Source: a virus
Taxonomy: Duplodnaviria; Heunggongvirae; Uroviricota; Caudoviricetes
Virus record (IMG/VR): IMGVR_UViG_2529293141_000017
Span: 1-25,976 of that record
Direction: 5' to 3' (one strand)
Length of the DNA: 25,976 nt
Positions within the stretch are counted from its first letter, which is position 1, and every line of letters starts with the position of its first letter. The notes below the pieces were generated by a model that searched no databases, was not told where the DNA came from, and saw only the letters and a program-made list of their open reading frames with translations. Shown one piece after another: positions 1 to 18,982 of this stretch. Made by a program: the position numbers and the translations under genes.

Positions 1-918
1 GAAACCCGCAATGAAATCACGCAGACGGTCAGTAAAACTCTGGAAGACCAGAGTGCCACCATACAGCAGATACAGCGGGTGCAGACAGACACAAATAACG
101 ACCTGGCTGCGCTGTACATGCTGAAGGTGCAGAAAACAAAAAACGGCATTCCGTATGTTGCCGGTATAGGTGCGGGGATTGAGGATGCTGATGGCCAGCC
201 CCTGAGCAATATACTGCTGCAGGCGGACCGTATCGCGATGATTAACCCGGAGAACGGCAACAGCACGCCGCTGTTTGTGGCGCAGGGGAATCAGCTGTTC
301 ATGAACGATGTGTTCCTGAAGCGACTGTTTGCAGTGAGCATCACCTCGTCCGGCAATCCCCCGACGTTCTCCCTGACGCCGGAGGGCAGGCTGACGGCCC
401 GCAATGCGGACATCAGCGGACATATCAGTGCGAACTCGGGCACGCTCAATAATGTCGTGATAGCGGAGAACTGTACGATAAATGGCACGCTGAAAGCGGA
501 GAACATTATTGGTGATCTTGTGAAATGTGCAGGGGTGGCTTTTCCGGTGGATGGTAGTTACCTTGCGAACGGTACACGAACGCTGACGGTGTATGACGAT
601 CACAGCTTTGACCGGCAGATTATAATCCCGCCGATAATCTATGTCGGGTCAAAACAGGAATCCCGCACCAGTAATGACATCTGGACAGAGTGCTTCCTGC
701 ATGTTGATCAGAACGGACGCCGGATTTATTCAGGCAGGTCAGTGACAGAGCCGGGAATTTTCAGCGGGATCATCGATATGCCAGCCGGTCATGGTCATAT
801 CACCCTGAGTTTTACCGTAAGTTCACGACGTCAGAACGGGAGTTTTGGCAGTTCACGTATCAGTAACCTTCAGGCGATAGTGGTGAAGAAAAACAGCGCG
901 GGGATCAGTATCCGCTGA
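1..918 (+). CDS. J: Phage tail tip / host-specificity protein J, C-terminal part (5' end outside window)
   Basis: Open frame from base 1 with no stop until 918; it sits immediately upstream of the side-tail-fibre gene, as in lambda. The product assignment is from reading the translation, not from a search. Confidence 0.7.
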
Positions 919-1116
919 ACATCGCGCCCCGGGATTGCCGGAAGGAGACAAAAACCGTACAGTATGCGCGGGTGCCTTTGGCTGATGGCCGGAGGGAACA
1001 CCTGAAGGCCGGAAAGACGAAGGCCCCGGACAAACATTCATGTTTAACCCGAGGCCTGACGTTCTTCCTTCAGCAAGAAGAAGGTTAGCGCCTCTCCGTA
1101 AAAGGAGCAAGCGTTT

Positions 1117-1251
1117 ATGTCGCAAAAACCGTTAAAAACCACCGTGATTTGTATCACGGTAGTGCTCATTATCTGGATCACCCACAGTTCACTGTGCGAG
1201 TTCCGGTTCCGGATAGCGGGGCGCGGAGATTGCGGCGTTCTTACAGTGTAA
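1117..1251 (+). CDS. Hok/Gef-family-like small membrane peptide (44 aa), possibly truncated
   Basis: Own translation MSQKPLKTTVICITVVLIIWITHSSLCEFRFRIAGRGDCGVLTV: an N-terminal hydrophobic helix followed by SLCEFRFR, matching the Hok/RelF core (KSLCEIRYR). AAGGAG sits 6 nt upstream of the ATG. The C-terminus diverges from Hok. Confidence 0.3.
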   Translation: MSQKPLKTTVICITVVLIIWITHSSLCEFRFRIAGRGDCGVLTV

Positions 1252-1353
1252 GCAGTAAGAAACCGTGGCGGGGGAGAATATCCCCCGCCGACCGGTTGCT
1301 GAGGGTGGTCAGCCGGATGGCACCGTTTTAACACCAACAAACCACAAATTTTA

Positions 1354-1387
1354 CCGCAGGCCGGGAAACCGGTACTGCGGTTTTTTT
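1354..1387 (+). terminator. Rho-independent terminator-like hairpin immediately upstream of stf
   Basis: CCGCAGG ... CTGCGG stem with a nested CCGG pair, followed by T7, then GGGGG and the ATG at 1401. Confidence 0.5.
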
Positions 1388-1400
1388 ATGGGGGAAATCC

Positions 1401-2801
1401 ATGACAGTCAGAATATCGGGTGTGCTGAAGGATGGTACGGGAAAACCGGTACCGGGATGCACGATAGAGCTGAAAGCGCGCCGCACAACGGAGACGGTGA
1501 TTGTCACCACGGTGGCGTATGGTCAGCCGGGGGAAACCGGCAGTTACAGTATGGATGTTGAGCCGGGTCTGTACCGGGTGACGCTGAACACGGAAGGGTA
1601 CGCGCCGTCATATGTGGGTGACATTCTGGTGAAGGCGGATTCTGCACCGGGAACGCTGAATAAATTTCTGATGGACCTGGAGGACGCACAGTATTACCCG
1701 AAAGCCCTTGCAGAGCTGGAAGCGGTGGCAGCGGAAATCCTGAAACGTGCAGAAGCGTCAGCGGCCAGTGCGGAGGAGGCAAAAAAACGGGCAGAGAATG
1801 CGCGGGGACCGAAGGGGGATAAGGGGGACACCGGGCCGCAGGGTATTCCCGGGCCAAAAGGCGATACCCGCGAGCGGGGGCCAAAGGGTGAGCGTGGTGA
1901 GACAGGACCACAGGGGCTTCAGGGTGTGAAAGGTGAACGGGGAGAGAAGGGCGAAAAAGGCGAGCCGGGAGGGCCGGATGCGACGACGGCACAGAAGGGA
2001 ATTGTGCAGTTAAGCAGCACAACGGACAGTGATGATGAAACGAAGGCAGCCACCCCGAAAGCGGTGAAAGCGGCAATGGACAAAGCGGACGGATGCCTGG
2101 AGAAAGCGAAAAACGGTGACGATATCCCGGATAAGGTGAAGTTTCTGAACACCGTGGGGGCAGCCAGAGTATACGGGCGGGACATTCATACGGGGGCCGG
2201 TGAATGGACCACGAGTGAGTTTGTCGCCTGGCTGAAAGAAAAAGGGGCATTTGACCAGCCTTACTGGATGATGAAGGCATCACTGCTTGCGGAATTTAAT
2301 AAGGTCATCACGGATGTCGGACCGGGAAAACTCAATCTGGGAGGCTGCGCCATTGAGGTGATGGGGACGTATAACGCAGCCATAGTCCGGGTCACCATCG
2401 GCGAATACGGTGGCGATGGTTTTCTGAACGGCACGGTCTGTACCTGTACAGTTTATGGAGACACACAACGTTTTCACTGGCGGGTGGATTACAGCACAAA
2501 AAACAAGCCCACAACAGCAAGCCTGACAGTAAATGGCTGGGAGCGTGATGAAGTAACCGGTCGTTTGCGGCAATGGGGCAGTATTGAGGTAAGTGAGGAT
2601 GATGGTAAGCTTATGACACAGCACTCTATCCGTTTTCCTGTCGCTTTTCCGGTTGCTGCTCTGAATGCTCAGGTGTCTGCAGTGGGAGACCCCAACGCCA
2701 TTAAGATGTATACCCTGTCGAATCCGTCATTAGTGTCTGTGACTCTGATAACAGTCAGGGGATGCTACGGCAAGTTTTCATGGGAAGCGATCGGATACTG
2801 A
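1401..2801 (+). CDS. stf: Side tail fibre protein (lambda Stf-like) with an internal collagen-like Gly-X-Y repeat region
   Basis: The N-terminus MTVRISGVLKDGTGKPV..CTIELKARR parallels lambda Stf (MAVKISGVLKDGTGKPV), and KGIVQLSSTTDS..ATPKAVKAAMD matches the conserved fibre motif. About 58 residues of G-X-Y repeats lie at nt 1806-1980. Confidence 0.85.
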   Translation: MTVRISGVLKDGTGKPVPGCTIELKARRTTETVIVTTVAYGQPGETGSYSMDVEPGLYRVTLNTEGYAPSYVGDILVKADSAPGTLNKFLMDLEDAQYYPKALAELEAVAAEILKRAEASAASAEEAKKRAENARGPKGDKGDTGPQGIPGPKGDTRERGPKGERGETGPQGLQGVKGERGEKGEKGEPGGPDATTAQKGIVQLSSTTDSDDETKAATPKAVKAAMDKADGCLEKAKNGDDIPDKVKFLNTVGAARVYGRDIHTGAGEWTTSEFVAWLKEKGAFDQPYWMMKASLLAEFNKVITDVGPGKLNLGGCAIEVMGTYNAAIVRVTIGEYGGDGFLNGTVCTCTVYGDTQRFHWRVDYSTKNKPTTASLTVNGWERDEVTGRLRQWGSIEVSEDDGKLMTQHSIRFPVAFPVAALNAQVSAVGDPNAIKMYTLSNPSLVSVTLITVRGCYGKFSWEAIGY

Positions 2802-2810
2802 GGGCATTGT

Positions 2811-3035
2811 ATGGAACAGTATGTTTTTTCACCGTCAGAGAATATGTTCTATCCCCTGTCCCTGCGGCCGGTTTATGAGGCAGCAGGGCGCTGGCCGGAA
2901 GACGGTATTGTGGTGGATTATGTGGTGTATAAAGTCTTTGCAGCGGATGCTGCACCGGCAGGTATGAAGCGGGGCGTCGGTGCGGAAAAAATGCCGGTCT
3001 GGGTGCCGGTATCGGAGGAGGGCACGGAAACATGA
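2811..3035 (+). CDS. Tail fibre assembly protein-like, N-terminal-type fragment (74 aa)
   Basis: The N-terminus MEQYVFSPSENMFYP...AGRWPEDG resembles the N-terminal motif of tail fibre assembly chaperones. It is too short for a full Tfa and its stop overlaps the next start (ATGA). Confidence 0.4.
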   Translation: MEQYVFSPSENMFYPLSLRPVYEAAGRWPEDGIVVDYVVYKVFAADAAPAGMKRGVGAEKMPVWVPVSEEGTET

Positions 3036-3304
3036 TGCATATCAGAAATTTTTCGTATTACACCCCGGCGGAGCCGGATGTTGCAGGCGCGATGTACCTG
3101 AAGTCTGAGGATGGTCAGGACTGGTATGAGTGTCAGGCGTTGTTTTCGCCGGAGACGCTGAAGGTGGTGTATGACAGCCGGGGTGTGATTACGGGATACG
3201 GTAAGGACACTGCGTTACTGTGGCCGGTGAACCAGAGTGTGGCAGAAGTGCCGGATACCCCGGAGAACAGGAAAATTGACCTGAGCGGGCGCTGGGGGTT
3301 TTGA
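3032..3304 (+). CDS. tfa: Tail fibre assembly protein (Mu U / P2 G-like), N-terminal part; frame broken at a T4 run
   Basis: SEDGQDWYE...ETLKVVYD...VAEVPD...DLSGRWGF parallels P2 G / Mu U up to the W-x-F motif and then stops. The continuation DGEKI... lies in the -1 frame (see findings). Confidence 0.55.
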   Translation: MMHIRNFSYYTPAEPDVAGAMYLKSEDGQDWYECQALFSPETLKVVYDSRGVITGYGKDTALLWPVNQSVAEVPDTPENRKIDLSGRWGF

Positions 3305-3350
3305 CGGGGAGAAAATCACGGACCTGCTGACCGCGGAGAAAGCGCGAGGG

Positions 3351-3707
3351 ATGAAGGGCGATGAAATTAACGCCTGGCGTAATGCGATGGAAGCGGCGAA
3401 CTACACGTTTGAGCACAATGGGCGTAAATGGGACTACGGGAAGTCAACGCAGACGCGTCTTGAGCCATCGGTGGCGGCGGCGAAAGCGGGGAAACTGCCG
3501 GAGGCGTTTTTCTGGACGGATGCGGAAAACAATGATGTGCCGGTGACAGCAGAAGAGCTTATTGCGCTGAGTGAAGCGGCAGAGCAGGCGATGTTCACTA
3601 AAGGGATGGAAATCCACATTCGCCAGCGCACCATGAAGAAGGACCTGGAATCGCTGAGCAGTGCGGATGAGATCCTGGCATACAGGGTTGGCTGGGCACA
3701 GGAATAA
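3351..3707 (+). CDS. tfa: Downstream part of the same tail fibre assembly gene (or a separate 118-aa chaperone-domain ORF)
   Basis: The frame is open from 3285 and reads ...FDGEKITDLL..., completing the W-G-F-D-G motif of the upstream ORF. ATG 3351 has only a poor Shine-Dalgarno. Confidence 0.45.
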   Translation: MKGDEINAWRNAMEAANYTFEHNGRKWDYGKSTQTRLEPSVAAAKAGKLPEAFFWTDAENNDVPVTAEELIALSEAAEQAMFTKGMEIHIRQRTMKKDLESLSSADEILAYRVGWAQE

Positions 3708-3870
3708 CAGACAAAAAGATGGGGGACCATCACCTCCCCCATGAACTGCGTTGATTATGTCATTATTGTGAAGATATACACTATGCCGGGTAAATAGTGC
3801 CACGGAAAAGTTAATTCCGGAAGTGACGGAACTCTCATTTTTCGCGCATCCTGTTGATATGGATGATTTT

Positions 3871-4200
3871 TCAGATTTCCGGAAGTCCGTATTTTGCCCG
3901 GGCGCGGTTGCATGCTTCATTTGCGATGCCATTTTCTCCGGACATTGCGAATTCCCGGCACGTGGACGGACGGTTTTTGTAAACAGAGCAATATGCGTTT
4001 TTACCCGGAGTTCCCGCCAGAGCGACACATCGGGGATTTTTCTGACTGGTGCCGCGCATACAGCGATGAAAGGGGGATATTTGCTCAGTGAGACTGACCG
4101 GAACCTTTCCGCCAGCATCGTCAGCTTCTGCCCAGTAAAAAGAGACGCGGAAAAATGCACAACAGGCACCACACGTCATGCATGGATTCGGATTGTTCAT
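3871..4200 (-). CDS. YkgJ-family Cys-cluster (CxxCxxCC) zinc/iron-chelating protein, prophage moron
   Basis: [12 protein letters not shown]...RCMRGT...PRCVALAG...[14 protein letters not shown] fits the YkgJ-type pattern. Start chosen at MNNPNPC; an alternative in-frame ATG lies at 4257. Confidence 0.5.
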
Positions 4201-4299
4201 TTTTATACTATTTGTTGTTTTTTCAGCGATCAGATCAAAGGACGCTGAAAAAAACATTCTCCAAAATTAAATTATAACTATTTGATTTTATGGATAGAG

Positions 4300-4331
4300 G
4301 CATGCTTTTTACGCAAAAGTAAAAAGCATGC
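4300..4331. other. Perfect 13-bp-stem hairpin (GCATGCTTTTTAC / GTAAAAAGCATGC) between the prophage end and the potB stop
   Basis: Exact inverted repeat with a 6-nt loop, about 35 bp beyond the potB stop codon. Confidence 0.5.
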
Positions 4332-4364
4332 CAAATTTGCTATTAACTCTTTGAATATTCAGCA

Positions 4365-5228
4365 CTAATCATCTATTTCGGTTGCCTTCTTATTCAGCAA
4401 ACGAGAAGCGCGCCAGTAAACCAGCAACATCAGGCCCATTACGATAGTCAGCGTAATGCTGGTAGCTGCACCAAACGGCCAGTCACGAATATTAAGGAAC
4501 TGGACCTTGATGACGTTACCGATCAGCAGGTTTTTCGCACCGCCCATCAGGTCGGATACATAGAACAGGCCCATCGCTGGCAGCATCACCAGCAGACATC
4601 CGGCAATAATTCCCGGCATCGTCAGTGGAATAATGATACGGATAAAAGTCTGTAACTTGCTGGCACCGAGATCGCGCGCCGCCTCAAGCAACGGCTTATC
4701 CAGTTTTTCGATACTGGAGTACAGCGGCATCACCATAAACGGCAGCAGAATGTAAACCAGACCGATAATCACCGCACTGGGCGTGAACATGATACGGATT
4801 GGTGTGTCGATAACGCCCAGCCAGAGCAAAAACTCGTTGAGATAGCCTTTGGTGCTGAGGAAAATTTTCAGCCCGTAGATACGAATTAATGAGTTGGTCC
4901 AGAACGGAACAATCAGCAGAAACAGCAGCAGCGGACGCACCTTGTGTGGCAACTTCGCCAGAAACCAGGCAAACGGGTAGCCCAGCACCAGGCAGGCGAG
5001 GGTGGCGATCAGCGCCATATTCAGCGAGTGCAATAGCACTTCAAAATAGAGCGGATCGAGCAGACGCGTGTAGTTATCCAGCGTAAAGACCATTTTGACA
5101 AAACTGGCGTCGTCGCGGGTCAAAAAGCTGGTGCCAATGATCATCAGGTTGGGCAGAAAGACAAACAACACAAGCCAACCGACAATAGTGACAATCACTA
5201 CATTCTGGAACTTACTTGTGTTCTTCAT
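4365..5228 (-). CDS. potB: Spermidine/putrescine ABC transporter permease PotB
   Basis: 287-aa multi-TM permease with the EAARDLGA signature. Its start overlaps the potA stop, as in the potABCD operon. Confidence 0.93.
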
Positions 5229-6348
5229 CAGCCAGTACGACCTCCCAGCTTTCTACCCAATTAATGGCCATTTTTTGGTCGAGAGAGTGGTCAAAGTCAG
5301 GATCGTCTTCATTGAAGAATTCGCTGACCATCACCATCTTGCCATTTTCCAGTTCAACAACCGACTCCAGCGTCATGCCTTTGTAGTTACGCTCGCGAAC
5401 GTAACCAATCAGCCCTTCAGCGTGGTTGTCGTCGTTAATCTCTTCAACACGTAAGTCTTCCGGGCGCAGCAGAACATGCAGTTTTTGCCCCGGTTCAACG
5501 GCGAAGTTAACGTAGATATTACATTCGCGGCCTTCAACGTTGGCGCGTACGCGCTGCTCGTCTAGACGTTCGATGACAGTGGCGTTAAACATATTGATTT
5601 CGCCAATGAAGCCGGCAACAAACAGGTTTTTCGGCTCTTCGTAGATTTCACGCGGCGTGCCGTCTTGCTCAATGCGACCATCGCGCATCACCACAATCCT
5701 GTCTGACATGGTGAGTGCTTCTTCCTGGTCGTGAGTCACAAAGACGAATGTAATGCCAAGCTTACGCTGTAACGCTTTCAGCTCGTTCTGCATTTGCTTA
5801 CGCAGTTTGTAATCCAGCGCTGAGAGCGACTCATCCAGCAACAACAGACGAGGCTTGTTAACCACCGCGCGAGCAATGGCGACGCGTTGCTGTTGACCAC
5901 CAGAGAGCTGATGCGGTTTGCGTTGAGCGAAGGTTTCCAACTGCACCATCCGCAGGGCTTCCATCACGCGGGGCGTAATTTCAGCAGCGGGGGTTTTTTG
6001 CATGCGCAACCCAAAGGCCACATTTTCGAACACGGTCATGTGGGGGAAAAGTGCGTAGCTTTGGAAAACAGTGTTCACATAGCGGTTTTCCGCCGGAACG
6101 TGGGTGATGTCCTCGTTATCCAGCATGATGCGTCCGGAATCAACAGTTTCCAGACCTGCAATCAGGCGAAGAACGGTTGTTTTACCGCAGCCAGAAGGGC
6201 CAAGCAGCGTGAGGAACTCGCCATTGTTGATAGTCAGATCCAGCTGGGGAATGACCTCTTTACCATCAAAGCATTTGCGAATTCCCGCCAATTGCACCAG
6301 CGGTGAAAGCGAACTCGGTTGTTTATTCAATTTTTTACTCTGTCCCAT
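5212..6348 (-). CDS. potA: Spermidine/putrescine ABC transporter ATP-binding protein PotA
   Basis: 378 aa with Walker [13 protein letters not shown] signature LSGGQQQR and Walker B LLLDE. Confidence 0.96.
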
Positions 6349-6597
6349 GTAAACGCAACGGATGGCTTACCGATGCGGGGTTTGTGGTTAACCACCTTGG
6401 TGACTCTTAATGAGGGCGGTAATTCTACGGCAAACCGCTTGAATCGCCAATCTTTGTTGTGAATTACTGGCTTAGCTTTATATTCATTAAGGTAATGCTG
6501 ATAAATATTCCCGCTTGCAGGGGTAAAAGTGACCTGACGCAATATTTGTCTTTTCTTGCTTCTTAATAATGTTGTCACAAAAAGTGAGGGTGACTAC

Positions 6598-7824
6598 ATG
6601 GATAAACTACTTGAGCGATTTTTGAACTACGTGTCTCTGGATACCCAATCAAAAGCAGGGGTGAGACAGGTTCCCAGCACGGAAGGCCAATGGAAGTTAT
6701 TGCATCTGCTGAAAGAGCAGCTCGAAGAGATGGGGCTTATCAATGTGACCTTAAGTGAGAAGGGCACTTTGATGGCGACGTTACCGGCTAACGTCCCTGG
6801 CGATATCCCGGCGATTGGCTTTATTTCTCATGTGGATACCTCACCGGATTGCAGCGGCAAAAATGTGAATCCGCAAATTGTTGAAAACTATCGCGGTGGC
6901 GATATTGCGCTGGGTATCGGCGATGAAGTTTTATCACCGGTTATGTTCCCGGTGCTGCATCAGCTACTGGGTCAGACGCTGATTACCACCGATGGTAAAA
7001 CCTTGTTAGGTGCCGATGACAAAGCAGGTATTGCAGAAATCATGACCGCGCTGGCGGTATTGCAACAGAAAAAAATTCCGCATGGTGATATTCGCGTCGC
7101 CTTTACCCCGGATGAAGAAGTGGGCAAAGGGGCGAAACATTTTGATGTTGACGCCTTCGATGCCCGCTGGGCTTACACTGTTGATGGTGGTGGCGTAGGC
7201 GAACTGGAGTTTGAAAACTTCAACGCCGCGTCGGTCAATATCAAAATTGTCGGTAACAATGTTCATCCGGGCACGGCGAAAGGAGTGATGGTAAATGCGC
7301 TGTCGCTGGCGGCACGTATTCATGCGGAAGTTCCGGCGGATGAAAGCCCGGAAATGACAGAAGGCTATGAAGGTTTCTATCATCTGGCGAGCATGAAAGG
7401 CACCGTTGAACGGGCCGATATGCACTACATCATCCGTGATTTCGACCGTAAACAGTTTGAAGCGCGTAAACGTAAAATGATGGAGATCGCCAAAAAAGTG
7501 GGCAAAGGGTTACATCCTGATTGCTACATTGAACTGGTGATTGAAGACAGTTACTACAATATGCGCGAGAAAGTGGTTGAGCATCCGCATATTCTCGATA
7601 TCGCCCAGCAGGCGATGCGCGATTGCGATATTGAACCGGAACTGAAACCGATCCGCGGTGGTACCGACGGCGCGCAGTTGTCGTTTATGGGATTACCGTG
7701 CCCGAACCTGTTCACTGGCGGTTACAACTATCATGGTAAGCATGAGTTTGTGACTCTGGAAGGTATGGAAAAAGCGGTGCAGGTGATCGTCCGTATTGCC
7801 GAGTTAACGGCGCAACGGAAGTAA
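6598..7824 (+). CDS. pepT: Peptidase T (tripeptide aminopeptidase)
   Basis: 408 aa starting [21 protein letters not shown]; GAGGG Shine-Dalgarno upstream. The longer ORF start at 6556 is rejected. Confidence 0.93.
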
Positions 7825-7833
7825 GCGAAAAGG

Positions 7834-7856
7834 GATGCGGCATGTGATGCCGCATC
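7834..7856. terminator. Bidirectional terminator hairpin between convergent pepT and roxA
   Basis: GATGCGGCAT gtg ATGCCGCATC, a 10-bp perfect stem. Confidence 0.5.
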
Positions 7857-7872
7857 CGGCTTAAATCCAAAC

Positions 7873-8994
7873 TTACCCTTCGAAGAACCAATACCCGCTA
7901 TTGACCAGCGCCGCGAGCATCGCGAGGAATGACGGATCTTCCAGCGCATCGCCAAAATTCTCCGCAGTCAGCGCAATGTTGCTGGCGAGTGCATCCAGTG
8001 CCGGACGGTGCGGGGAATCGATCTTCTCACCATTGGCATACACGTCGTCGCCAATGCGCAATACGCGCAGACCACCCAGGCGCACCAGCACTTCACCTTG
8101 TTTCAGCGCATCGTAGATTTCATCCGGCTGATAAGGCGGCTCTGGCGGCGCGATATCCAGTTCATGACGTGACTGGGATATAAACTCGCCAAACCATTGC
8201 TTAAAGTGTTCCGGCTGGTTGATCAATTCGAGCATCATCTCACGCAGTTTATCCATCTCTTGCGGCAGAACATCCGCAGGATGAGCGCGAGGTGGAACAT
8301 CCGGATCGCTGTAGTAGTTGCCGCCCAGTTCACGTTGCAGCACATAATCGGCAAATCCACTAATCAGTTCCCGCGTATTTGGCGCGCGAAAGCCCACGGA
8401 ATAGTTCATCGCATTTTCCAGCGCGTAGCCTTCATGCGGGAATCCTGGCGGAATATAAAGAATATCACCAGGCTCCAGCTCTTCATCGATGATGGCTTCG
8501 AACGGATCGACCTGTAACAGATCCGGATGTGGGCAGTGCTGTTTCATTTGCAGCTTTTCGCCCACTCGCCAGCGACGACGTCCGGTACCCTGAATGATAA
8601 ACACGTCGTACTGATCGAGATGCGGACCGACGCCGCCGCCGGGTACAGAAAAAGAAATCATCAGATCATCAATACGCCAGTCCGGTAGTTCACGGAACGG
8701 TCGCATCAGCGCGGCGGTCGGCTCATGCCAGTGGTTCACTGCCTGTACCAGTAATGACCAGTTGGTTTCACCGAGATGATCGTAGCTTTCGAACGGGCCG
8801 TGGCTGACCTGCCATTTGCCATCCTGGTGACTGACCAGTCGACTGTCAACTTCGCTTTCCATCGCCAGACCCGCCAACTCGTCTGGAGAGATCGGGTCAA
8901 TAAAATTATTAAAGCCGCGTTTTAACACCACCGGGCGTTTCTGCCAGTGACGTTCAAGAAAATCGGGCCAGTTAAGAGTGAGTTGGTATTCCAT
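7873..8994 (-). CDS. roxA: Ribosomal protein uL16 arginine hydroxylase (YcfD/RoxA, JmjC/cupin family)
   Basis: 373 aa from MEYQLTLNWPDFLERHWQKRP, in conserved synteny with pepT. Confidence 0.9.
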   Translation of the reverse strand: MEYQLTLNWPDFLERHWQKRPVVLKRGFNNFIDPISPDELAGLAMESEVDSRLVSHQDGKWQVSHGPFESYDHLGETNWSLLVQAVNHWHEPTAALMRPFRELPDWRIDDLMISFSVPGGGVGPHLDQYDVFIIQGTGRRRWRVGEKLQMKQHCPHPDLLQVDPFEAIIDEELEPGDILYIPPGFPHEGYALENAMNYSVGFRAPNTRELISGFADYVLQRELGGNYYSDPDVPPRAHPADVLPQEMDKLREMMLELINQPEHFKQWFGEFISQSRHELDIAPPEPPYQPDEIYDALKQGEVLVRLGGLRVLRIGDDVYANGEKIDSPHRPALDALASNIALTAENFGDALEDPSFLAMLAALVNSGYWFFEG

Positions 8995-9195
8995 GTTAAG
9001 CATCCACAGGCTGGTATCTGCAACCGATTATAACGGATGCTTAACGTAATGCGTGAAGTATGGACATATTTTATCAATTAGTGTTTTTTGCCGTTTCATA
9101 ATGTTTCAGGTTGTGCATTATGTTTTTGATTATAAACAGATTTGTGATTTTTCTTGTTCCAGCTTGTTTCACGTTGTAGCCCTTTGTGCAACGAT

Positions 9196-9221
9196 CGGTG
9201 TAGTTAATGGTGTAGTTAATT
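9196..9221. repeat. Candidate attL core (CGGTGTAGTTAATGGTGTAGTTAATT)
   Basis: Direct repeat of 24410-24435; lies immediately 5' of the int start. Confidence 0.55.
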
Positions 9222-9242
9222 GTGATGACCGGATTCAAAATT

Positions 9243-10472
9243 ATGAGCAGAGCACTTAACAAACTGAGCGATACACAGCTGAGGAAAATCAACGGCACAC
9301 CCGCCCAAAAAACAGCCTTTCTTAATGACGGTGGAAACCTGAGCGTCAGGCATTCAACCAGTGGCCTTTTAACCTGGTATTTCACTTACAGGGCCGGAAC
9401 GGGAAGGGGGGCACCACCGGAACGCATTAAGCTGGGAAATTATCCTGATCTGAGCCTGAAATCAGCCAGGGAAAAAGCCGCCCAGTGTCGCGCATGGCTG
9501 GCAGAGGGGAAAAATCCACGTCATGAAATGAATTACACCGTACAGGAAGCGTTAAAGCCGGTAACGGTTGGCGATGCGCTCACCTACTGGCTTGAGTCGT
9601 ACGCAAAGGAAAACCGTGTGGATTATGACCCACTGAAAAAGCGGCTAAATAATCACGTAATACAGCACATTGGCCCTATGCCGCTGGATAAATGCGAGCT
9701 ACGGCACTGGCTGACCTGTTTTGATCGGGTGGCAAAGAAAGCCCCTGTTTCCGCCGGGTTCCTGCTACAGACATGCAAGCAGGCGCTTAAGTTCTGCAGG
9801 AAGCGGCGCTATGCAATCAGCAACGTTCTTGATGATATGAGTGTGGCGGACGTTGGGAAAAAACCGGATATAAGTGAGCGTGTCTTAAGTAACAAAGAAC
9901 TTGGCGAATTATTGCAGGCACTGGACAAAAAAATATTTTCCCCTTACTACGTCGCACTAATCCGCCTCCTGATTGTTTTCGGATGCCGGACAGTAGAACT
10001 GAGGTTATCGGAGATCGGCGAGTGGGATTTTACCGAAATGCTCTGGACCGTTCCGAAGGAGCACAGCAAAACGAAGGTAGCCATATTCCGGCCCATACCG
10101 GAAGCGATACTGCCGTTCGTCACGCAGCTGGTGGAGCAGAACAGGCACACGGGCTTATTGCTGGGGGAAGTGAAACAGGAAACCAGCGTATCGCAGTACG
10201 GCAGATTGGTGCACAGGAGGCTTAAACACCCTCACTGGTCACTGCATGACATCCGGCGCACCTTTACAACCATGCTGAACGATTTAGGCGTTGATCCTCA
10301 CGTCGTGGAGCAGCTTACAGGCCACCAGATGCCAGGAATGCAACGCGTGTACAACCATTCCCGCTATATTGATGCGAAACGCAATGCGCTTGATATGTGG
10401 GTGGAGCGGTTGGAGATACTGGCGGGAACACATGAAAACGTAACCACGCTACCAGTAACCAGAATAAAATAA
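9243..10472 (+). CDS. int: Tyrosine integrase (P4-type)
   Basis: N-terminal LSDTQLRKI...NDGGNLSV...WYFTYR arm-binding-like region, and a C-terminal catalytic region with HDIRRTF and a terminal RY...H. Alternative ATG at 9222. Confidence 0.88.
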   Translation: MSRALNKLSDTQLRKINGTPAQKTAFLNDGGNLSVRHSTSGLLTWYFTYRAGTGRGAPPERIKLGNYPDLSLKSAREKAAQCRAWLAEGKNPRHEMNYTVQEALKPVTVGDALTYWLESYAKENRVDYDPLKKRLNNHVIQHIGPMPLDKCELRHWLTCFDRVAKKAPVSAGFLLQTCKQALKFCRKRRYAISNVLDDMSVADVGKKPDISERVLSNKELGELLQALDKKIFSPYYVALIRLLIVFGCRTVELRLSEIGEWDFTEMLWTVPKEHSKTKVAIFRPIPEAILPFVTQLVEQNRHTGLLLGEVKQETSVSQYGRLVHRRLKHPHWSLHDIRRTFTTMLNDLGVDPHVVEQLTGHQMPGMQRVYNHSRYIDAKRNALDMWVERLEILAGTHENVTTLPVTRIK

Positions 10473-10846
10473 TTTTTTTCGTGTTTTTTCAGTATGCGCA
10501 TACTGGATAAGTGCACAGATACAACGTGAAACAATGTGCAATAACGTGACACAATCACGAACAAGAGGCCAAAAAGAATACAGATTTATAAGTTACTGAT
10601 TTTTAATGCTCAGCTGGTTTTTTATACATTAGTGAATTACGCGTTAAAGCGTGCGAAAAAAGGCATAAAACAAGATTTTATGCCTTTGTATTAACATGAA
10701 TTTAAATGATTTTATCCTGATTATTCCTCTTTCTGTAAACCATGCGACACCAACATTTGCCAACTCTGAATCATCCTGACACAATCAGACACATCCCAAC
10801 GCAATAGAACACGAAATAACTCTTTAAGAAACGAAAGGGGGCAATA

Positions 10847-11035
10847 GTGTTAAGCACTGATCGGTTTATACGTGAAAAAGAATGCGAAAAGCTAACAGGC
10901 CTTAGCCGCTCATGCCGCTACCGCCTGGAAAAGGCCGGACAATTCCCATCACGTCGTAAACTTGGCGGGCGTTCTGTTGGCTGGTCTTTATCTGAGGTTT
11001 TGGCCTGGAAGGATAGCTGCAAGGCAGTTCACTAA
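10847..11035 (+). CDS. alpA: AlpA-family (MerR/Xis-like) transcriptional regulator
   Basis: 62 aa with LTGLSRS..YRL...FP..RKLGGRSVGW, matching the AlpA pattern. GTG start with an AAGGGGG Shine-Dalgarno. Confidence 0.75.
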   Translation: MLSTDRFIREKECEKLTGLSRSCRYRLEKAGQFPSRRKLGGRSVGWSLSEVLAWKDSCKAVH

Positions 11036-11215
11036 AAAGACTGGCGGCACACAGCCACCACCAATCCATTATTGACCGATACCGGGATCTCGGTATCGGG
11101 AATAAACGCCATAATACTGAGGTATAACCATGATGAAATATACGCCCGTACAGGGGCGGGGATTCGTTCGCCCTGGTGAATCTGAAAAGCCATGCTATAG
11201 GGTATTTTCAGGCAT

Positions 11216-11243
11216 AAAAAAAGCGGTCCCGATATGGAACCGC
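11216..11243 (-). terminator. Rho-independent terminator for the minus-strand repressor cassette
   Basis: On the minus strand: GGCGGTTCC atatc GGGACCGC followed by T7. Confidence 0.45.
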
Positions 11244-11311
11244 CTTTCTGAACAATTAACCCGCTGCGCCGTATGTGTCAACAATCATAAGCCCGAACAT
11301 GATAACCGTGA

Positions 11312-11515
11312 TCAGGCTGGTGGGCAATTACCTTGCTTGTTGGGGCCGTATTGTGCTGCCATTTTCATCCGTTCAGAACGTGAATATTTTTTTAGAAACT
11401 CATCAAGGACAAAAGCGCATGGAGCGAATCTTTCTGATTCATGCTCGAGCGCCATATTTTCGTGCTCTCTGTTCGTTTTTTGCGATGGTGTATTGGTTGA
11501 TTCTTTATTGGTCAT
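11312..11515 (-). CDS. Hypothetical small protein (67 aa), second gene of repressor cassette A
   Basis: Paralogue of 12028-12255: shared MTN start and a conserved C-terminal F-x-L-D/E-x-F-x-K-Y-x-R motif. It is followed by a terminator. Confidence 0.45.
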   Translation of the reverse strand: MTNKESTNTPSQKTNREHENMALEHESERFAPCAFVLDEFLKKYSRSERMKMAAQYGPNKQGNCPPA

Positions 11516-11572
11516 TGTGTGTACCTGTAAAGCAATGCGCCGTAGTACCTCACGCCACGGCGCTGATAGTAA

Positions 11573-11752
11573 TTATTCTGATTCTTTGGCCTTGCGGCGC
11601 TGGCGGCGTTTGATCTCGCCTTTTGCTGCCGTAACTAGAAATCCGGCGGTACTTTCGCCAGGTTCTTTAAGTTGCTCAATATCGGTCATTACCTCATGCG
11701 GGATTCTGACCGTTGTCATTTGTGATTTTGCGTTCTTTGCACCTGTTGCCAT
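11573..11752 (-). CDS. Ribbon-helix-helix DNA-binding protein (59 aa), candidate island repressor, copy A
   Basis: Own translation MATGAKNAKSQMTTVRIPHEVMTDIEQLKEPGESTAGFLVTAAKGEIKRRQRRKAKESE, with a beta-strand / helix / helix pattern. AGGAGA Shine-Dalgarno 7 nt upstream. Divergent from a plus-strand promoter and operators. Confidence 0.55.
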   Translation of the reverse strand: MATGAKNAKSQMTTVRIPHEVMTDIEQLKEPGESTAGFLVTAAKGEIKRRQRRKAKESE

Positions 11753-11771
11753 TTCTGGTTCTCCTGATAAT

Positions 11772-11864
11772 CGGTGTATTTCAGTATACGCAAAAAAAAG
11801 ATAAAAAAAGTCTTGCGGTGTATTTCACCTGAATGTAGATTTAAAAATGAAGGTGAAATACACC
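11772..11864. promoter_or_regulatory. Operator/promoter region A: GGTGTATTTCACC in three copies, two forming a perfect 13-bp inverted pair
   Basis: 11817-11829 and 11852-11864 are exact reverse complements; a third direct copy lies at 11772-11783. The region sits between divergent genes. Confidence 0.45.
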
Positions 11865-11938
11865 CAAAACAACAACGCCCCGCAGTGATGGGAACACATA
11901 CGGGGCGTCTAACCAAACCATTAATTGAGGTAACGATT

Positions 11939-12010
11939 ATGGCTATAAAAGAGCATAGCTTACTCTTTATACACACACAAACGCCCCGGAAACGGAATAA
12001 TCCGTTTCAT
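11939..12010 (+). pseudogene. Truncated 5' remnant of an Icd-like gene (paralogue of 12685-12879)
   Basis: MAIKEHSLLFIHTQT... shares the M-x-x-x-H-x-x-x-L-x-HTQT start with 12685, then loses similarity where cassette B begins. Confidence 0.35.
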
Positions 12011-12027
12011 AGTTCGGTTTTGTGCAC

Positions 12028-12255
12028 TCATCCTGGCGGTCGGTTTTTGCCGGATTTAAGCCGCCGTGGGTATTTATCGACAAAATCTTCAAGGGCAAAT
12101 TTTTCTGGTGGCACTAAGCGCGGCGCTGGTGGTGGTATTTTTGTTCTGGTTAGTTCTTCCTCAACTCTGGCGCAGGCTTCTGACTGCCTTTGCCGGATGA
12201 TTTCATCATCTTGCGTTTGCGTGTCTTGTATTGGTGATAGTGTGTTGTTGGTCAT
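12028..12255 (-). CDS. Hypothetical small protein (75 aa), second gene of repressor cassette B
   Basis: Paralogue of 11312-11515, same position in the cassette. Confidence 0.5.
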   Translation of the reverse strand: MTNNTLSPIQDTQTQDDEIIRQRQSEACARVEEELTRTKIPPPAPRLVPPEKFALEDFVDKYPRRLKSGKNRPPG

Positions 12256-12312
12256 GATACTGCCCTGTAAAGCAATGCGCCGTAGTACCTCACACCACGG
12301 CGCTGATAGTGA

Positions 12313-12492
12313 TTATTCTGATTCTTTGGCCTTGCGACGCTGGCGGTATTCAACTTCCCGCTTTAATGCAGCTGTAACAAACTGCCCTGTACTTTCGCCG
12401 GGCATTTTTACCGCCTCAACATTGTTCATAACTTCATGTGGAACCCTTGCCGCAACTGTTTGTGATTTTGCGTTTACTGCTTTTGTCGCCAT
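12313..12492 (-). CDS. Ribbon-helix-helix DNA-binding protein (59 aa), candidate island repressor, copy B
   Basis: MATKAVNAKSQTVAARVPHEVMNNVEAVKMPGESTGQFVTAALKREV.... GAGGGG Shine-Dalgarno upstream. Divergent from the replication operon. Confidence 0.6.
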   Translation of the reverse strand: MATKAVNAKSQTVAARVPHEVMNNVEAVKMPGESTGQFVTAALKREVEYRQRRKAKESE

Positions 12493-12542
12493 GTTGAGCA
12501 CCCCTCATAAAAAACAAATGCAGTATGCAGGAAAAAAAACAA

Positions 12543-12594
12543 GTGTTCAACACTTGACGTGTTTAACACCTCGATTTAAATTGGTGTTCAACAC
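12543..12594. promoter_or_regulatory. Operator/promoter region B: three GTGTT(C/T)AACAC palindromes overlapping a TTGACG-N17-TAAATT promoter
   Basis: Palindromes at 12543, 12559 and 12584 bracket the -35 and -10 of the plus-strand promoter feeding 12685 onward. Confidence 0.5.
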
Positions 12595-12684
12595 CTTATT
12601 TAGGCAAGGTGTAGAAACGACGAAACCCCGCACTGTAGGAGCAGTAACGGGGCTTCTAACCAACAACGTAAACGAGGAGCCGTT

Positions 12685-12879
12685 ATGGTTGCCGTAAATC
12701 ATATACCACACCTTGTACACACACAAACGGCCTTTGTGTGGCGTTTTCTGGCACTGAGTGCCGGAGAATCTCAAATCATCCACGTAACCGCCTGGACGGA
12801 ACGCGAAGCGCGTAACCTTTGCCCGTCCGGTTGTGTTGCTGTATTTGCCGCCCGTATTCGCCAGGGGGTAGGCTTATGA
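12685..12879 (+). CDS. Small protein, possibly Icd-like (host cell division inhibitor family); first gene of the early operon
   Basis: 64 aa with a GAGGAG Shine-Dalgarno. The motif FVWRFLALS...TEREAR...FAARI resembles Icd-like proteins of P4-type elements, from memory only. Confidence 0.5.
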   Translation: MVAVNHIPHLVHTQTAFVWRFLALSAGESQIIHVTAWTEREARNLCPSGCVAVFAARIRQGVGL

Positions 12880-13109
12880 GCCAGGAAATCACACTACAAC
12901 AGGCAGCAGAACGCGCCCACCAAATCGAAGTTATTTGCGCACTGGCAGAGGATTACCCTGGCATGATGACCGACAGCGAATCAGGGGCAATCATCGGCTT
13001 ACTTAAACGCCTTAGCGGTGAGGTCTGCGTATTCCTGAGCGATGAACAGGAAAGAAGAACGCTTATTTCTAACGAAAAAAAATGCGGAGGGGTACACCAT
13101 GTGCAATAA
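12876..13109 (+). CDS. Hypothetical protein (77 aa)
   Basis: ATG overlaps the upstream stop (ATGA); GGGGGT Shine-Dalgarno; translationally coupled. Confidence 0.5.
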   Translation: MSQEITLQQAAERAHQIEVICALAEDYPGMMTDSESGAIIGLLKRLSGEVCVFLSDEQERRTLISNEKKCGGVHHVQ

Positions 13110-13341
13110 CATCCGTCCGGACGCAGCCGCCGCCGCACTCACTACGCTGATGCACGCGCTTATTGATATTGAATGCACGGCAGAGCTTGCACAAAAGGAA
13201 GAACGGGAGGAATACACATTGTTCGCCCTGGAATGTATCCGATACACCGCCACGCGGTCGCTGAATGACGCTAAAAATATTCTTGTTGCAGATTGTGAAA
13301 ATGGGGGGGGGTTATGCGTGATGATCGTTTTAATTCCCTGA
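13099..13341 (+). CDS. Hypothetical protein (80 aa) with a G9 tract near its 3' end
   Basis: GGAGGGG Shine-Dalgarno before ATG 13099; overlaps the neighbouring genes. Confidence 0.45.
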   Translation: MCNNIRPDAAAAALTTLMHALIDIECTAELAQKEEREEYTLFALECIRYTATRSLNDAKNILVADCENGGGLCVMIVLIP

Positions 13342-13547
13342 AACAAGAATTTTCCGGCGTTCCTGATGATGCGGCTGATGCGCTTTCGTCAATGCCAGAA
13401 CTTATTAGAGCGGCTTTTTTCTTACTTTCCACGAGAGAATATAAATCAACGGGGCTTGATGTACTGAATATCGCCGCCGATTATGCGGAATATGTGGCAG
13501 AGGCGCGTTACAGAAGAAAATTTCCTGAGGATGTAAGCCATGCGTGA
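13314..13547 (+). CDS. Hypothetical protein (77 aa)
   Basis: ATG directly after the G9 tract, which serves as its Shine-Dalgarno; operon context. Confidence 0.5.
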   Translation: MRDDRFNSLKQEFSGVPDDAADALSSMPELIRAAFFLLSTREYKSTGLDVLNIAADYAEYVAEARYRRKFPEDVSHA

Positions 13548-13773
13548 TATTTACCACGAAACAACAGAACGCGTATTTCTTGCACTTTCTCACAGTGAAA
13601 ACATGCTGGAAATATTGCGCATATGGCTTGAAACACTTGGCGACAATGAACGCGACAAACAAAAATCAAGAATTGTCACGGCATTAATAACGCTTCTTGA
13701 GCCTGTAATAATGGAACTACAAGAAATAGAGACATTGCACGACAGATATAACGAACAGCACACCGGAGAATAA
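13540..13773 (+). CDS. Hypothetical protein (77 aa)
   Basis: Start overlaps the upstream stop (ATGCGTGA); operon context. Confidence 0.5.
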   Translation: MRDIYHETTERVFLALSHSENMLEILRIWLETLGDNERDKQKSRIVTALITLLEPVIMELQEIETLHDRYNEQHTGE

Positions 13774-13778
13774 AAATA

Positions 13779-14078
13779 ATGAAACTTAAATATTCTGGCT
13801 TAACTGCCAGTGGCAACACTCACCCTAAATTTACGCGCGGTGATATTTACCGCGACCAGTACGGCGGTACGGTAATGATTAAGGGCGTGGCGGGACGGTG
13901 CGTAACTTACCGCCGTGAAGGTTACGAATATGATTGCGTGATGCCTGTTTATCAGTTCCGGCGTGATTTTTCTCTGGTACAGACCGCGCCGCATAACGTG
14001 CCCACCAGCAGGGAGAAAGCACGCGCCAATATTCAGAAGATGAAAAACATGATTAACGGATTCAGGGGCAAGAAATGA
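13779..14078 (+). CDS. Hypothetical protein (99 aa), translationally coupled to the helicase gene
   Basis: Stop overlaps the helicase ATG (ATGA). Confidence 0.55.
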   Translation: MKLKYSGLTASGNTHPKFTRGDIYRDQYGGTVMIKGVAGRCVTYRREGYEYDCVMPVYQFRRDFSLVQTAPHNVPTSREKARANIQKMKNMINGFRGKK

Positions 14079-15472
14079 AAAGCGCACCGAACTTAAAAAA
14101 ACAGCCTTACGACAAGATGACCGAAGTCATCATTTTTGCGGGTAGTGATGCGTGGGCACATGCGAAACAGTGGCAGGAACAGGACGGGCGACTGGCTGGC
14201 GATAATGTGCCTCCCATTGTGCTGGCTGATGATCAACTGGATGAACTGGCAGACCTGAGAATCATCGACGAGGGGCGCTATTGTGTCCGGCTGTACAAGG
14301 CAGGCCACATCAGGCCATCAAATATTAATGCCATTGCGCACAAGCTGGCGGCGGCGGGCGTAACTGATGCGAATTATTACCCCGAAGGGATACACAGCCA
14401 GAAGCGGGAGAACTGGCGCGAATATCTGGAACGGGAGCGGGGGAAAAAGCCAGGGGAAGAACACCACCAGCGAAAAACCACGCTACCGATGAGCGTTGGA
14501 TCTGCCGGATACGACACGCAATTAGATTACGTGGTAAAGGGGATTATTCCGGCATCGTCGCTTTGCAGCATATACGGGGCGAGCGGTTCCTATAAATCAT
14601 TCCTTGCGGGTTCGTGGGCGTGTCACGTTTCCACGGGCCGCCAGTGGGGAGGCCGCAGGGTGGCGCATGGCGCTGTTCTCTATGTGGTTGGTGAAGGCGG
14701 TATCGGCGTTCCGCGTCGTGTAAAAGCCTGGGAGGTTGTGCACGGTGAGCAGGTGAAAAATCTGTATCTGGTAAACCGTCCCATCTTTCCGGCGGTCCCG
14801 CTTGATGTTGATGAAATGGTTATCGCTGCCCGTCAGGTGGAGCGGGAAACGGGTAAACCTGTACGCATGATTATTCTGGATACGCTGGCGCGTTGCTTTG
14901 GTGGGAATGATGAAAATGATTCCCGTGATATGGGGGCGTTTATCCGTGGTTGTGACGAACTGAAACGACGCACAGGGGCCACGGTGCTGGTGGTTCACCA
15001 TTCCGGCAAGGATGAGACGAAAGGCGCGCGCGGTTCCAGTGCATTTCGTGCATCACTGGATGCTGAATACCGGATACGCAGGGAGGACGCAGGAAGCGAA
15101 GCGCTGGTTATCTCATGCACCAAAATGAAGGACGCGGAGGAACTCAAAGAAGCCGCATATGACTTACGCGTGGTGGAGCTGTTTACCGACGCTGACGGGG
15201 AGTTAATCACGTCGCTGGTGGTGGTGGATAAGCCGCGCCCTCCCGTTGAACTGGAGCGCATCGAGGAGGCAGGCAACAAGACGGAAAACCATACCGCACT
15301 ATGGGGGTGCATCCGTTCACGCACACAGAACGGCGACAAGTGCACGATCCCGCTGTTACGTGATGACATGAAACGGCTTGGGTATGACGTGAAAAATATG
15401 CGGCGATGGTTAGCCAAACTGGAAAAAGACGCCGTGATTTACATTGATGGTGATGATGTAGGACCACTGTAA
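14075..15472 (+). CDS. Replicative ATPase/helicase (RecA-fold, RepA/AAA_25-like) with an N-terminal domain of unknown role
   Basis: Walker A GASGSYKS, Walker B-like ILDTLARCFGG, and VVHHSGKD...GARGSSA motifs. Confidence 0.8.
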   Translation: MKSAPNLKKQPYDKMTEVIIFAGSDAWAHAKQWQEQDGRLAGDNVPPIVLADDQLDELADLRIIDEGRYCVRLYKAGHIRPSNINAIAHKLAAAGVTDANYYPEGIHSQKRENWREYLERERGKKPGEEHHQRKTTLPMSVGSAGYDTQLDYVVKGIIPASSLCSIYGASGSYKSFLAGSWACHVSTGRQWGGRRVAHGAVLYVVGEGGIGVPRRVKAWEVVHGEQVKNLYLVNRPIFPAVPLDVDEMVIAARQVERETGKPVRMIILDTLARCFGGNDENDSRDMGAFIRGCDELKRRTGATVLVVHHSGKDETKGARGSSAFRASLDAEYRIRREDAGSEALVISCTKMKDAEELKEAAYDLRVVELFTDADGELITSLVVVDKPRPPVELERIEEAGNKTENHTALWGCIRSRTQNGDKCTIPLLRDDMKRLGYDVKNMRRWLAKLEKDAVIYIDGDDVGPL

Positions 15473-15672
15473 AAAGTGAGTAGCAAAAGTGAGTAATGAT
15501 GAGGTTTTTACAAAATATTAACACGATTACTCACTTTCTCACCTGTATACATGCTCAAAAGTGAGGAGTAAAAAAATCATTATGAAACATACACATAAAG
15601 CATCAAAAAATATCAAGTGAGACGAAGCGAGACGCTTTAAAAAGTGAGGTGTAAAAGTGAGCATGAGTGAGG
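15473..15672. repeat. Iteron array (AAAGTGAG, at least 7 direct and 1-2 inverted copies) with an AT-rich spacer: candidate island replication origin
   Basis: Copies at 15473, 15486, 15530 (inverted), 15558, 15615, 15641 and 15654, immediately 3' of the helicase gene. Confidence 0.55.
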
Positions 15673-15926
15673 AGATAACCAAAATGCGCAGAGACAGAAC
15701 AGGGCCGAAATATAAAGCGTTAGACATGACAGAGCACGCCTTAAAGGTGGCAATCAGGGTAATAGACCGCCACGCGGGGGAAGGATACGCGAAAGCACAT
15801 CCCGAACTGATAAGCGCATTCATGACCACGACGGCGGCAAATTTTGCCACGCTGACAGAGCGGGAGATTGCCGAAGCGGAACAGGTAACAACCATCAACG
15901 TTAAAACCGGAGAGGTGGAATCATGA
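15663..15926 (+). CDS. Hypothetical protein (87 aa)
   Basis: ORF begins inside the last iterons; its stop overlaps the next ATG. Confidence 0.4.
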   Translation: MSEEITKMRRDRTGPKYKALDMTEHALKVAIRVIDRHAGEGYAKAHPELISAFMTTTAANFATLTEREIAEAEQVTTINVKTGEVES

Positions 15927-16228: not shown

Positions 16229-16237
16229 GGTGGCAAT

Positions 16238-16648: not shown

Positions 16649-16658
16649 GGGGGTGACG

Positions 16659-16907: not shown

Positions 16908-17173
16908 GAATATCAGAACCACACCATACAGCCGGAGCAATCCGGCTTTTTGTTATTTTTTGTAAATTATTTGTTCGTGGTTGTTCCACGTTGTTCACTG
17001 AGCGGATCGGCATATTTTACCCGAACTGAATCATGATTATTCTCGCCCGTGGTGCCAGGACGCTGGGGCCACTTTCCCGCCTGTTAATGTGCTCGCCAAT
17101 ATTCATTACCAGGCGGGAAAACGATCGGTGCGATTGCTGATTTCCTTATGAAAAACGGTTGAGTGTTTGCCGC

Positions 17174-18981: not shown

Positions 18982-18982
18982 T

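Follow-up and report, generated by a model that had tools for sequence, protein, structure and literature searches.

The classic case of a phage that inserts into the 3′ end of a gene and carries a replacement for the end that it displaces is Campbell's, that of phage 21 and e14 in icd. The prophage insertion in potB analysed here has the same character: it lies in the 3′ end of the protein-coding gene, and a substitute C-terminus encoded in frame by the phage arm keeps a reading frame open. The two differ in extent, with about 50 codons of icd being replaced by a near-identical copy whereas four codons of potB are replaced by six different ones, and the potB insertion, unlike that in icd, also divides an operon whose genes overlap translationally. 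Lambda differs from the potB phage in core sequence and in chromosomal target, which for lambda is the intergenic gal-bio region. What the two phages have in common is architecture: relatives of the potB phage share the order int-xis-exo ... J-stf-tfa-att and an Int homologue with an adjacent excisionase, and their arms have three tandem repeats on the int side, one copy on the other side and a match to the IHF consensus, all candidate binding sites that are recognised from conservation only.

Prophage insertion at potB/potC is real but already known: the site is published and very common, and ~30% of complete E. coli genomes have a prophage there. Published examples are Sakai Sp6, placed between potC and potB (PMC8190617), and O104:H4 prophage J, assigned to potB/potC (PMC3486847), and the literature also gives potC/potB as the site of the O113:H21 Stx2 phages; ‘potC’ is not mentioned in the main text of Steyert 2012. 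By their published sites, these STEC ‘potC’ prophages (Sakai Sp6, O157:H7 prophage 5, O104:H4 prophage J and the O113:H21 Stx2a/Stx2d phages) share the position of the insertion described here, and they are also lambdoid. The one O157:H7 junction examined, that of MB9-1, has the same att core and a homologous att arm, but its PotB tail reads ATEIDN rather than ATEIDD, and O157:H7 has the T3SS effector gene espK beside attR where the present DNA has a ykgJ paralogue.

We analysed a 25,976-bp stretch of DNA (the window), and consider that its positions 1-4384 are, with a probability of about 0.93, the right, tail-fibre end of a lambda-like temperate prophage integrated site-specifically at a core in potB. 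Alignment with the reference locates a junction and a potB 3′ end that differs from that of K-12: the 4370 bp of positions 4385-8754 differ from K-12 by a single mismatch, and the DNA left of potB is all phage by Pfam and PHROG assignments. The attR junction falls at 4384/4385, inside potB and 20 nt upstream of its stop codon. The earlier note had placed the start of phage DNA about 100 bp beyond the stop, which proves to be too far out; the phage att arm fills the ~100 bp that separate the potB stop from the next open reading frame.

The core was defined by a three-way comparison of attB (K-12), attR (the window and five other genomes) and attL (three genomes). It comprises 12 bp common to host attB and phage (4385..4396; CCTTCTTATTCA on the plus strand, TGAATAAGAAGG in the potB sense), and divergence from K-12 falls exactly at its edge. 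Crossover probably occurs within the 7-bp segment TGAATAA (4390-4396), because an imperfect inverted repeat, CCTTA/GAAGG, flanks this segment in the reconstructed attP. In the mechanism that we propose, a tyrosine integrase of the lambda Int family would recombine attP with the host core, which lies among the final codons of potB, immediately before the potB stop and potC start (overlapping in ATGA in K-12). Integration would split potABCD, leaving potA and potB beside the tail end of the prophage and moving potC and potD ~51 kb away, to the int-proximal end. The operon is split in the sequences, with both halves keeping their open reading frames.

The potB half is complete in the window, with potA at 5212-6348 and the hybrid potB at 4365..5228, both on the minus strand. 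In the list of open reading frames the latter encodes 287 aa from an upstream ATG, or 277 aa from the GTG annotated in K-12. Its product (Pfam BPD_transp_1) is identical to K-12 PotB through NKK, and only the last six codons are non-host. As the earlier note had suspected, these codons are supplied by the phage: K-12 identity ends at the core edge, and the native ending KKVELE becomes KKATEIDD, with four residues lost and six phage-encoded ones gained. The phage-encoded 3′ end (4365..4384, minus strand) consists of the stop and six codons, one base of which is common with the core, so that codons (A)TEIDD and TAG replace the native VELE and TGA. Surrogate tails occur in two diverged arm families, as ATEIDD or ATEIDN in one and VSELDD in the other; they are always of the same length and acidic, and their E-(I/L)-D motif is similar to the E-L-E of the native end. 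The hybrid PotB may still be functional. Leu274 of PotB, inside the replaced VELE, is said to have been found moderately important for spermidine uptake by Higashi and colleagues in 2010. A text search of the literature on the role of Leu274 returned nothing, and the PotD-PotABC structure paper is silent on the PotB C-terminus.

The other half of the operon was sought with K-12 potC and potD as queries. Searches by blastn and tblastn across the 25,976 bp returned neither gene, the only matches being to the paralogous permease motif inside potB; the claim that potC is missing from its expected position is borne out. In OkiPb01714 and FWSEC0010, the two relatives with the same junction that were examined, a single contiguous prophage of ~51 kb separates potB from an intact potC-potD pair, which lies next to int and xis. 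In OkiPb01714, which has the same tail end as the window and is without stx, an intact potC (264 aa) and potD lie 50.8 kb from potB, and int, xis, exo, a replication module, Q, lysis, terminase, and head and tail genes come between. The O113:H21 genome FWSEC0010, the closest to the window (92% coverage, 97% identity), carries a 51.2-kb Stx2a prophage with stx2a, and its int/xis lie 166 bp from potC. Along its full length the integrase of the relatives shares 45% identity with lambda Int, and an excisionase gene is adjacent. A second copy of the core (attL) is found beside potC in OkiPb01714, FWSEC0010 and vB_EcoS-640R1, the last being a prophage-derived sequence since its record includes potC and potD. 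The same type of integrase is carried by vB_EcoS-640R1. With the tail-proximal attR in the window and potC-potD at the far end in two relatives, the earlier proposal of a lambdoid prophage at the potB/potC junction holds; the window stops inside J, and by analogy with these relatives its source genome probably also has potC and int at the far end of the prophage.

The tail-proximal att arm is ~180 bp long (4201..4384, no strand assigned). Four attR arms in alignment are otherwise diverged, but all of them have TCTCCAAAA unchanged at -127 from the core. The corresponding motif, TTCTCCAAAA at 4257-4266, is a candidate arm-type Int site; it has its sole exact match in the window here, and the int-side arm carries it three times in tandem. 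A match to the IHF consensus (4275-4287, minus strand) is also conserved. By analogy with lambda attP, TTCTCCAAAA and the IHF-like motif may be sites for recombination proteins. The arm further contains the palindrome TGAATATTCA (4352-4361) and a perfect hairpin with a 14-bp stem (4299-4332); the fold of the 80 nt around it (4285-4364) has an energy of -26.9 kcal/mol (z = -5.95). We considered this hairpin as a terminator for potAB and rejected it, as it is not followed by a U-tract and is not among the calls of the terminator scan. The sister arm, viewed by eye and unfolded, apparently has a stem-loop of different sequence at the same position. When a phage collection was searched with the reconstructed attP, no free-phage record gave an uninterrupted match, and the only matches, at 44% coverage, were to Stx1a prophage records.

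At the int-proximal end in the relatives, potC keeps its start codon and its own ribosome-binding site, AAGGTGG, which straddles the core. Recombination at attL also creates a mini-ORF, ATG AAT AAG AAG GTG GAA CTC GAA TGA (MNKKVELE and stop), that ends on the potC start in 3/3 attL sequences. We discarded it as a device for translational coupling: its ATG, the A of which lies in the inferred core-type repeat, has no Shine-Dalgarno sequence ahead of it, and the ORF appears incidental.

The only known promoter of the potABCD operon lies upstream of potA. The insertion physically cuts potCD off from it, and no sigma-70 consensus promoter was found either in the int-side arm upstream of potC (vB_EcoS-640R1) or in the arm in the window. 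Since Int and Xis are encoded in relatives, the prophage could conceivably act as a switch, turning the split potAB/potCD off or down when integrated and restoring spermidine uptake on precise excision. This form of active lysogeny, framed on sequence features, seems improbable to us: the phage arm preserves both an in-frame ending for PotB and the ribosome-binding site of potC, and such a switch would in any case add to the integration explanation rather than replace it. A transcriptome paper that mentions potABCD is uninformative on lysogens.

Positions 1-4384 carry J, hok/sok, stf and tfa on the plus strand in lambda order, with a cargo gene and the att arm at the end; the late genes (J, side tail fibre and tail-fibre assembly) point towards attR, and the order matches that of annotated relatives. 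The window opens in the 3′ part of the gpJ tail-tip/host-specificity gene (1..918, plus strand), of which the last 305 codons are present, the gene running off the window start (Pfam Phage_Tail_Tip 7.5e-25 and Ig_GpJ_C 7.3e-37; PHROG tail fibre 7.5e-132; gpJ is so annotated in relatives). Between J and the side tail fibre gene lies a toxin-antitoxin locus of hok/sok type (970..1251, plus strand), with a sok match at 970-1128 (Rfam RF01794, 62.9 bits against a gathering score of 59) and a small ORF of the Hok/Gef family at 1117-1251 (Pfam HOK_GEF 3.4e-7; PHROG MokW-like 2.2e-14). The side tail fibre gene (1401..2801, plus strand, 466 aa) matches Pfam phage_tail_N (1.5e-41), Collagen, Phage_fiber_2 and Gp53-like_C, and PHROG tail fibre at 2.5e-99; a small ORF akin to tail-fibre assembly proteins follows (2811..3035, plus strand, 74 aa; phrog_19350 4.1e-47, phrog_188 tail fibre assembly 1.7e-14). 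Next to the arm, on the minus strand, is the cargo gene, which belongs to the YkgJ family and has a CxxCxxCC cysteine cluster (3871..4200, 109 aa, the longest ORF reaching 4257; Pfam CxxCxxCC 9e-12). Its product is 83% identical to chromosomal K-12 YkgJ, relatives have it annotated as a 330-bp YkgJ-family CDS, and PHROG and PADLOC searches with it gave no match. Downstream of it, also on the minus strand, the terminator scan found a terminator-like hairpin with a T-run (3718..3742; 8-bp stem with 5 GC pairs, tail CTTTTTGTCT), which is a consensus match only. A tRNA scan of the window found no tRNA genes.

The tail-fibre/cargo region upstream of the shared att arm varies by strain, with ykgJ here, espK in O157 and a methyltransferase gene in UPEC, and this variation upstream of the same arm implies frequent exchange of modules. 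Homologous recombination between resident lambdoid prophages, by inversion, deletion or the formation of a tandem or compound prophage, could have reshuffled the element, so that the tail end on the potB side would no longer belong to the prophage whose int lies on the potC side and the attR arm alone would be a relic of the original integration. Such events are on record for O157:H7 (PMC10925052): prophage 5 (potC) and prophage 7 (yebW) hold the breakpoints of a 650-kb inversion, and a compound potC prophage has undergone an internal deletion of 47 kb. We nevertheless judge a reshuffled element to be highly improbable here, as OkiPb01714 and FWSEC0010, which share the tail end of the window, each have their prophage in one contiguous piece, and the window itself gives no sign of rearrangement.

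One phage gene in the window is frameshifted. The DUF4376 tail-fibre (assembly) gene (3032..3707, plus strand) reads as two ORFs, 3032-3304 and 3351-3707, because a G-run at ~3294-3298 is one base too long: alignment has GGGGG in the window and GGGG in relatives; the two ORFs match positions 1-89 and 106-223 of phrog_11571 (Pfam DUF4376 2.4e-18), and in relatives the gene is one intact 675-bp CDS. The prophage may be defective, or the extra base may be a homopolymer error in the assembly. Together with the lack of potC and potD in the window, the broken gene might suggest that these two genes were deleted from the genome and that a phage remnant was fused to a truncated potB. The odds on such a deletion are very long: the breakpoint falls, to the base, at the att core that over 1600 genomes use, and nothing is missing from the conserved att arm. 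Among 5426 complete E. coli genomes, 676 have the window-type attR arm and 971 the sister arm (tail VSELDD), and the int-side arm is joined to potC in 1624; the counts of int-side and attR arms are about equal, which indicates that potC is normally retained in lysogens. A junction produced by chimeric assembly or faulty sequencing, for which the homopolymer-type frameshift might be taken as a hint of imperfect consensus quality, is virtually excluded because the same 120-bp junction is found full-length in all 676 of the former genomes, hundreds of them independently assembled.

Site-specific integration at the potB core leaves current understanding unchanged in this base-level description, which is useful as a refinement: it specifies the 12-bp core, the hybrid PotB tails, the retained potC ribosome-binding site, the conserved arm motifs and the occupancy of the site. 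For annotation, an ATEIDD ending in a potB allele is a sign that a prophage occupies the site and that potC and potD lie a prophage length away; this prophage may be Stx-converting, like that of the closest relative. The physiological question raised is what effect a split potABCD has on spermidine uptake in ~30% of E. coli. Phages at this site might have evolved att arms that keep the split potAB/potCD working; alternatively, this share of the species would have altered spermidine uptake, modulated by the prophage or switched upon excision. We offer this proposal as a speculation that is rather unlikely as it stands; within it, a surrogate in-frame PotB tail and a crossover that spares the potC ribosome-binding site would fit maintained function rather than switching.

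In K-12 MG1655 the potB stop and the potC start overlap in ATGA. BLAST comparison of the window with the K-12 potD-roxA region returned one block, 4385-8754, with 1 mismatch in 4370 bp, and no match to that region left of 4385. This boundary lies inside potB (4365-5228, - strand; potA, 5212-6348, - strand; both from the ORF listing and direct reading): on the coding strand the K-12 gene ends ...CTG AAT AAG AAG GTG GAA CTC GAA TGA (NKKVELE*) and that of the window ...CTG AAT AAG AAG GCA ACC GAA ATA GAT GAT TAG (NKKATEIDD*). Phage DNA starts 20 nt ahead of the stop codon and, as an earlier note had suspected, supplies the last potB codons, replacing VELE* with ATEIDD*. The same note had set the phage boundary ~100 bp past the potB stop, which has to be corrected: the ~100 bp separating that stop from the next ORF are part of the phage attachment-site arm. 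Its remark that potC is missing from the expected place holds, with no potC or potD sequence in the entire 25,976-bp window. Across the backbone (4385-8754, potB-potA-pepT-roxA) the sole base differing from K-12 MG1655 is 8626 (A/G). The nearest counterparts of the window's phage and island parts come from O113:H21 and other LEE-negative STEC; a K-12-like strain (phylogroup A) is a possible host.

The other end of the prophage can be seen in relatives. The closest complete E. coli genome to the window, O113:H21 FWSEC0010 (92% coverage, 97% identity), has an Stx2a-converting prophage of 51.2 kb at the potB/potC site, in which int stops 166 bp from potC. In E. coli OkiPb01714, which is 98.4% identical to the window's tail end, a lambdoid prophage of 50.8 kb adjoins potB and closes with xis and int, after which come intact potC-potD. 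These arrangements support the earlier reading of a prophage integrated at the potB/potC junction. Comparison of attB (the host site), attR (the tail-proximal end) and attL (the int-proximal end) gives a 12-bp core, TGAATAAGAAGG, at window 4385-4396. The attL junctions read phage-...CCTTA TGAATAA(G/A)AAGG TGGAACTCGAATG-potC, and in the reconstructed attP TGAATAA is flanked by an imperfect inverted repeat, CCTTA / GAAGG; we infer by analogy with lambda that TGAATAA would be the 7-bp crossover segment. The potC Shine-Dalgarno-like sequence AAGGTGG straddles core and host arm, so attL retains both it and the native start codon. attL also creates an eight-codon mini-ORF ending on the potC start, which has no ribosome-binding site and is probably incidental. 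OkiPb01714 has a 2.2-kb insert between attL and int (14611-16133 of its extracted stretch L002, NZ_AP042687.1) encoding an AAA ATPase and a small ORF (PADLOC AbiLi 1.4e-24, AbiLii weak at 3.8e-4), likely abortive-infection cargo; this AbiL-type insert is missing from FWSEC0010 and vB_EcoS-640R1.

The integrase of these relatives' prophages is 45% identical to lambda Int over a full-length alignment and 98% identical to that of vB_EcoS-640R1 and vB_EcoS-813R8; the 640R1 record contains potC/potD and is thus a prophage-derived sequence. The int-side arm holds three tandem copies of TTTTGG(G/A)GA(A/G)A. The window's attR arm has one, TTCTCCAAAA (4257-4266), with no other exact match within the window, and this motif has the identical position, -127 from the core, in 4/4 aligned arms that are otherwise substantially diverged. 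An IHF-consensus match (4275-4287, - strand) is also conserved in the four-arm alignment. A perfect hairpin with a 14-bp stem follows at 4299-4332, and the 80-nt stretch including it (4285-4364) folds at -26.9 kcal/mol (z = -5.95); in a second attR arm family, the sister arm, a stem-loop with another sequence occupies this position, as judged by eye only. By conservation and analogy, these candidate sites would fit a lambda-type attP architecture.

Pfam and PHROG scans show that the plus-strand gene block left of potB is the end of the late operon in a lambda-like phage. It comprises the C-terminal 305 residues of tail-tip protein J (1-918), a Hok/Gef-type small ORF (1117-1251), the side tail fibre (1401-2801), a tail-fibre-assembly-like small ORF (2811-3035) and a DUF4376 tail-fibre (assembly) gene (3032-3707). 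With an Rfam match to sok (970-1128; 62.9 bits), the Hok/Gef-type ORF makes a hok/sok-type toxin-antitoxin locus (970-1251) that separates gene J from the side tail fibre, the position occupied by lom in lambda. Alignment shows that the DUF4376 gene, a single intact 675-bp CDS in two relatives, is split into two ORFs by an extra G in the G-run near 3294-3298. This is either a homopolymer sequencing error or a true pseudogene, in which case the prophage is possibly defective. Just inside attR lies a YkgJ-family cysteine-cluster gene on the - strand (3871-4200; CxxCxxCC domain, Pfam). Its product shares 83% amino-acid identity with that of chromosomal K-12 ykgJ (b0288) and it has no match in PHROG or PADLOC scans, so it looks like phage cargo. 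Cargo here differs by strain: ykgJ in the window, espK in O157:H7, a methyltransferase together with tail-fibre-assembly pseudogene fragments in the two sister-arm strains examined and, in one of these, 675SK2, a DinI pseudogene in addition.

Occupied sites were counted by sequence queries against 5426 complete E. coli genomes. The window-type junction (120 bp) occurs in 676/5426, a 1151-bp stretch including the ykgJ cargo in 95/5426, and the sister arm in 971/5426 (O104:H4 among the matches; sequences examined in UPEC strain 455U and 675SK2). Together the two attR counts give 1647, close to the 1624/5426 for the int-side arm joined to potC, so ~30% of complete E. coli genomes have the site occupied. 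Published Stx-phage insertion sites include potC (PMC8065619), potC and potB flank Sakai prophage Sp6 (PMC8190617), and O104:H4 prophage J is located at potB/potC (PMC3486847). The arrangement is therefore known and very common, and was correctly recognized in the earlier note. Large rearrangements in O157:H7 involve 'prophage 5 (potC)' (PMC10925052); a prophage-prophage rearrangement separating the window's tail end from this genome's own attL/potC end, beyond the window, is a minor possibility. Also minor is a deletion as the origin of the potB-phage junction; potC and potD are absent here and intact at the far prophage end in relatives. That the junction, found in hundreds of genomes, is an artefact deserves little weight.

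roxA and phoQ are separated by a second element, an island of 15,436 bp (9072-24507), which is flanked by a 10-bp direct repeat, GGACATATTT (9062-9071 and 24508-24517), and is missing from the K-12-like and OkiPb01714 arrangements. Its relative in FWSEC0010 is annotated with an integrase, HTH regulator, Icd-like protein, RepA helicase, SSB, major capsid, prohead protease, portal, head closure and connector proteins, HNH, TerS and TerL, and with no tail genes. Architecture and size match capsid-forming PICI satellites such as EcCIEDL933 (15.4 kb; bioRxiv 10.1101/2022.09.08.507074). The island is at least 80% covered in 63/5426 genomes, and O157:H7 is also credited with a roxA/phoQ element (PMC8190617).

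Integration physically splits the potABCD operon, leaving reading frames intact in both halves. potCD is cut off from the promoter upstream of potA, and a promoter scan of the int-side arm found no sigma-70 consensus promoter for it. PotB gains a phage-encoded tail: ATEIDD in the window, ATEIDN in O157:H7 strain MB9-1 and VSELDD in the sister arm, all six residues long and acidic with E-(I/L)-D, resembling the native E-L-E. Recombination constraints could explain this conservation equally well, as the tail stretch adjoins the att core; judged from sequence, the likeness may instead reflect selection for a working PotB.
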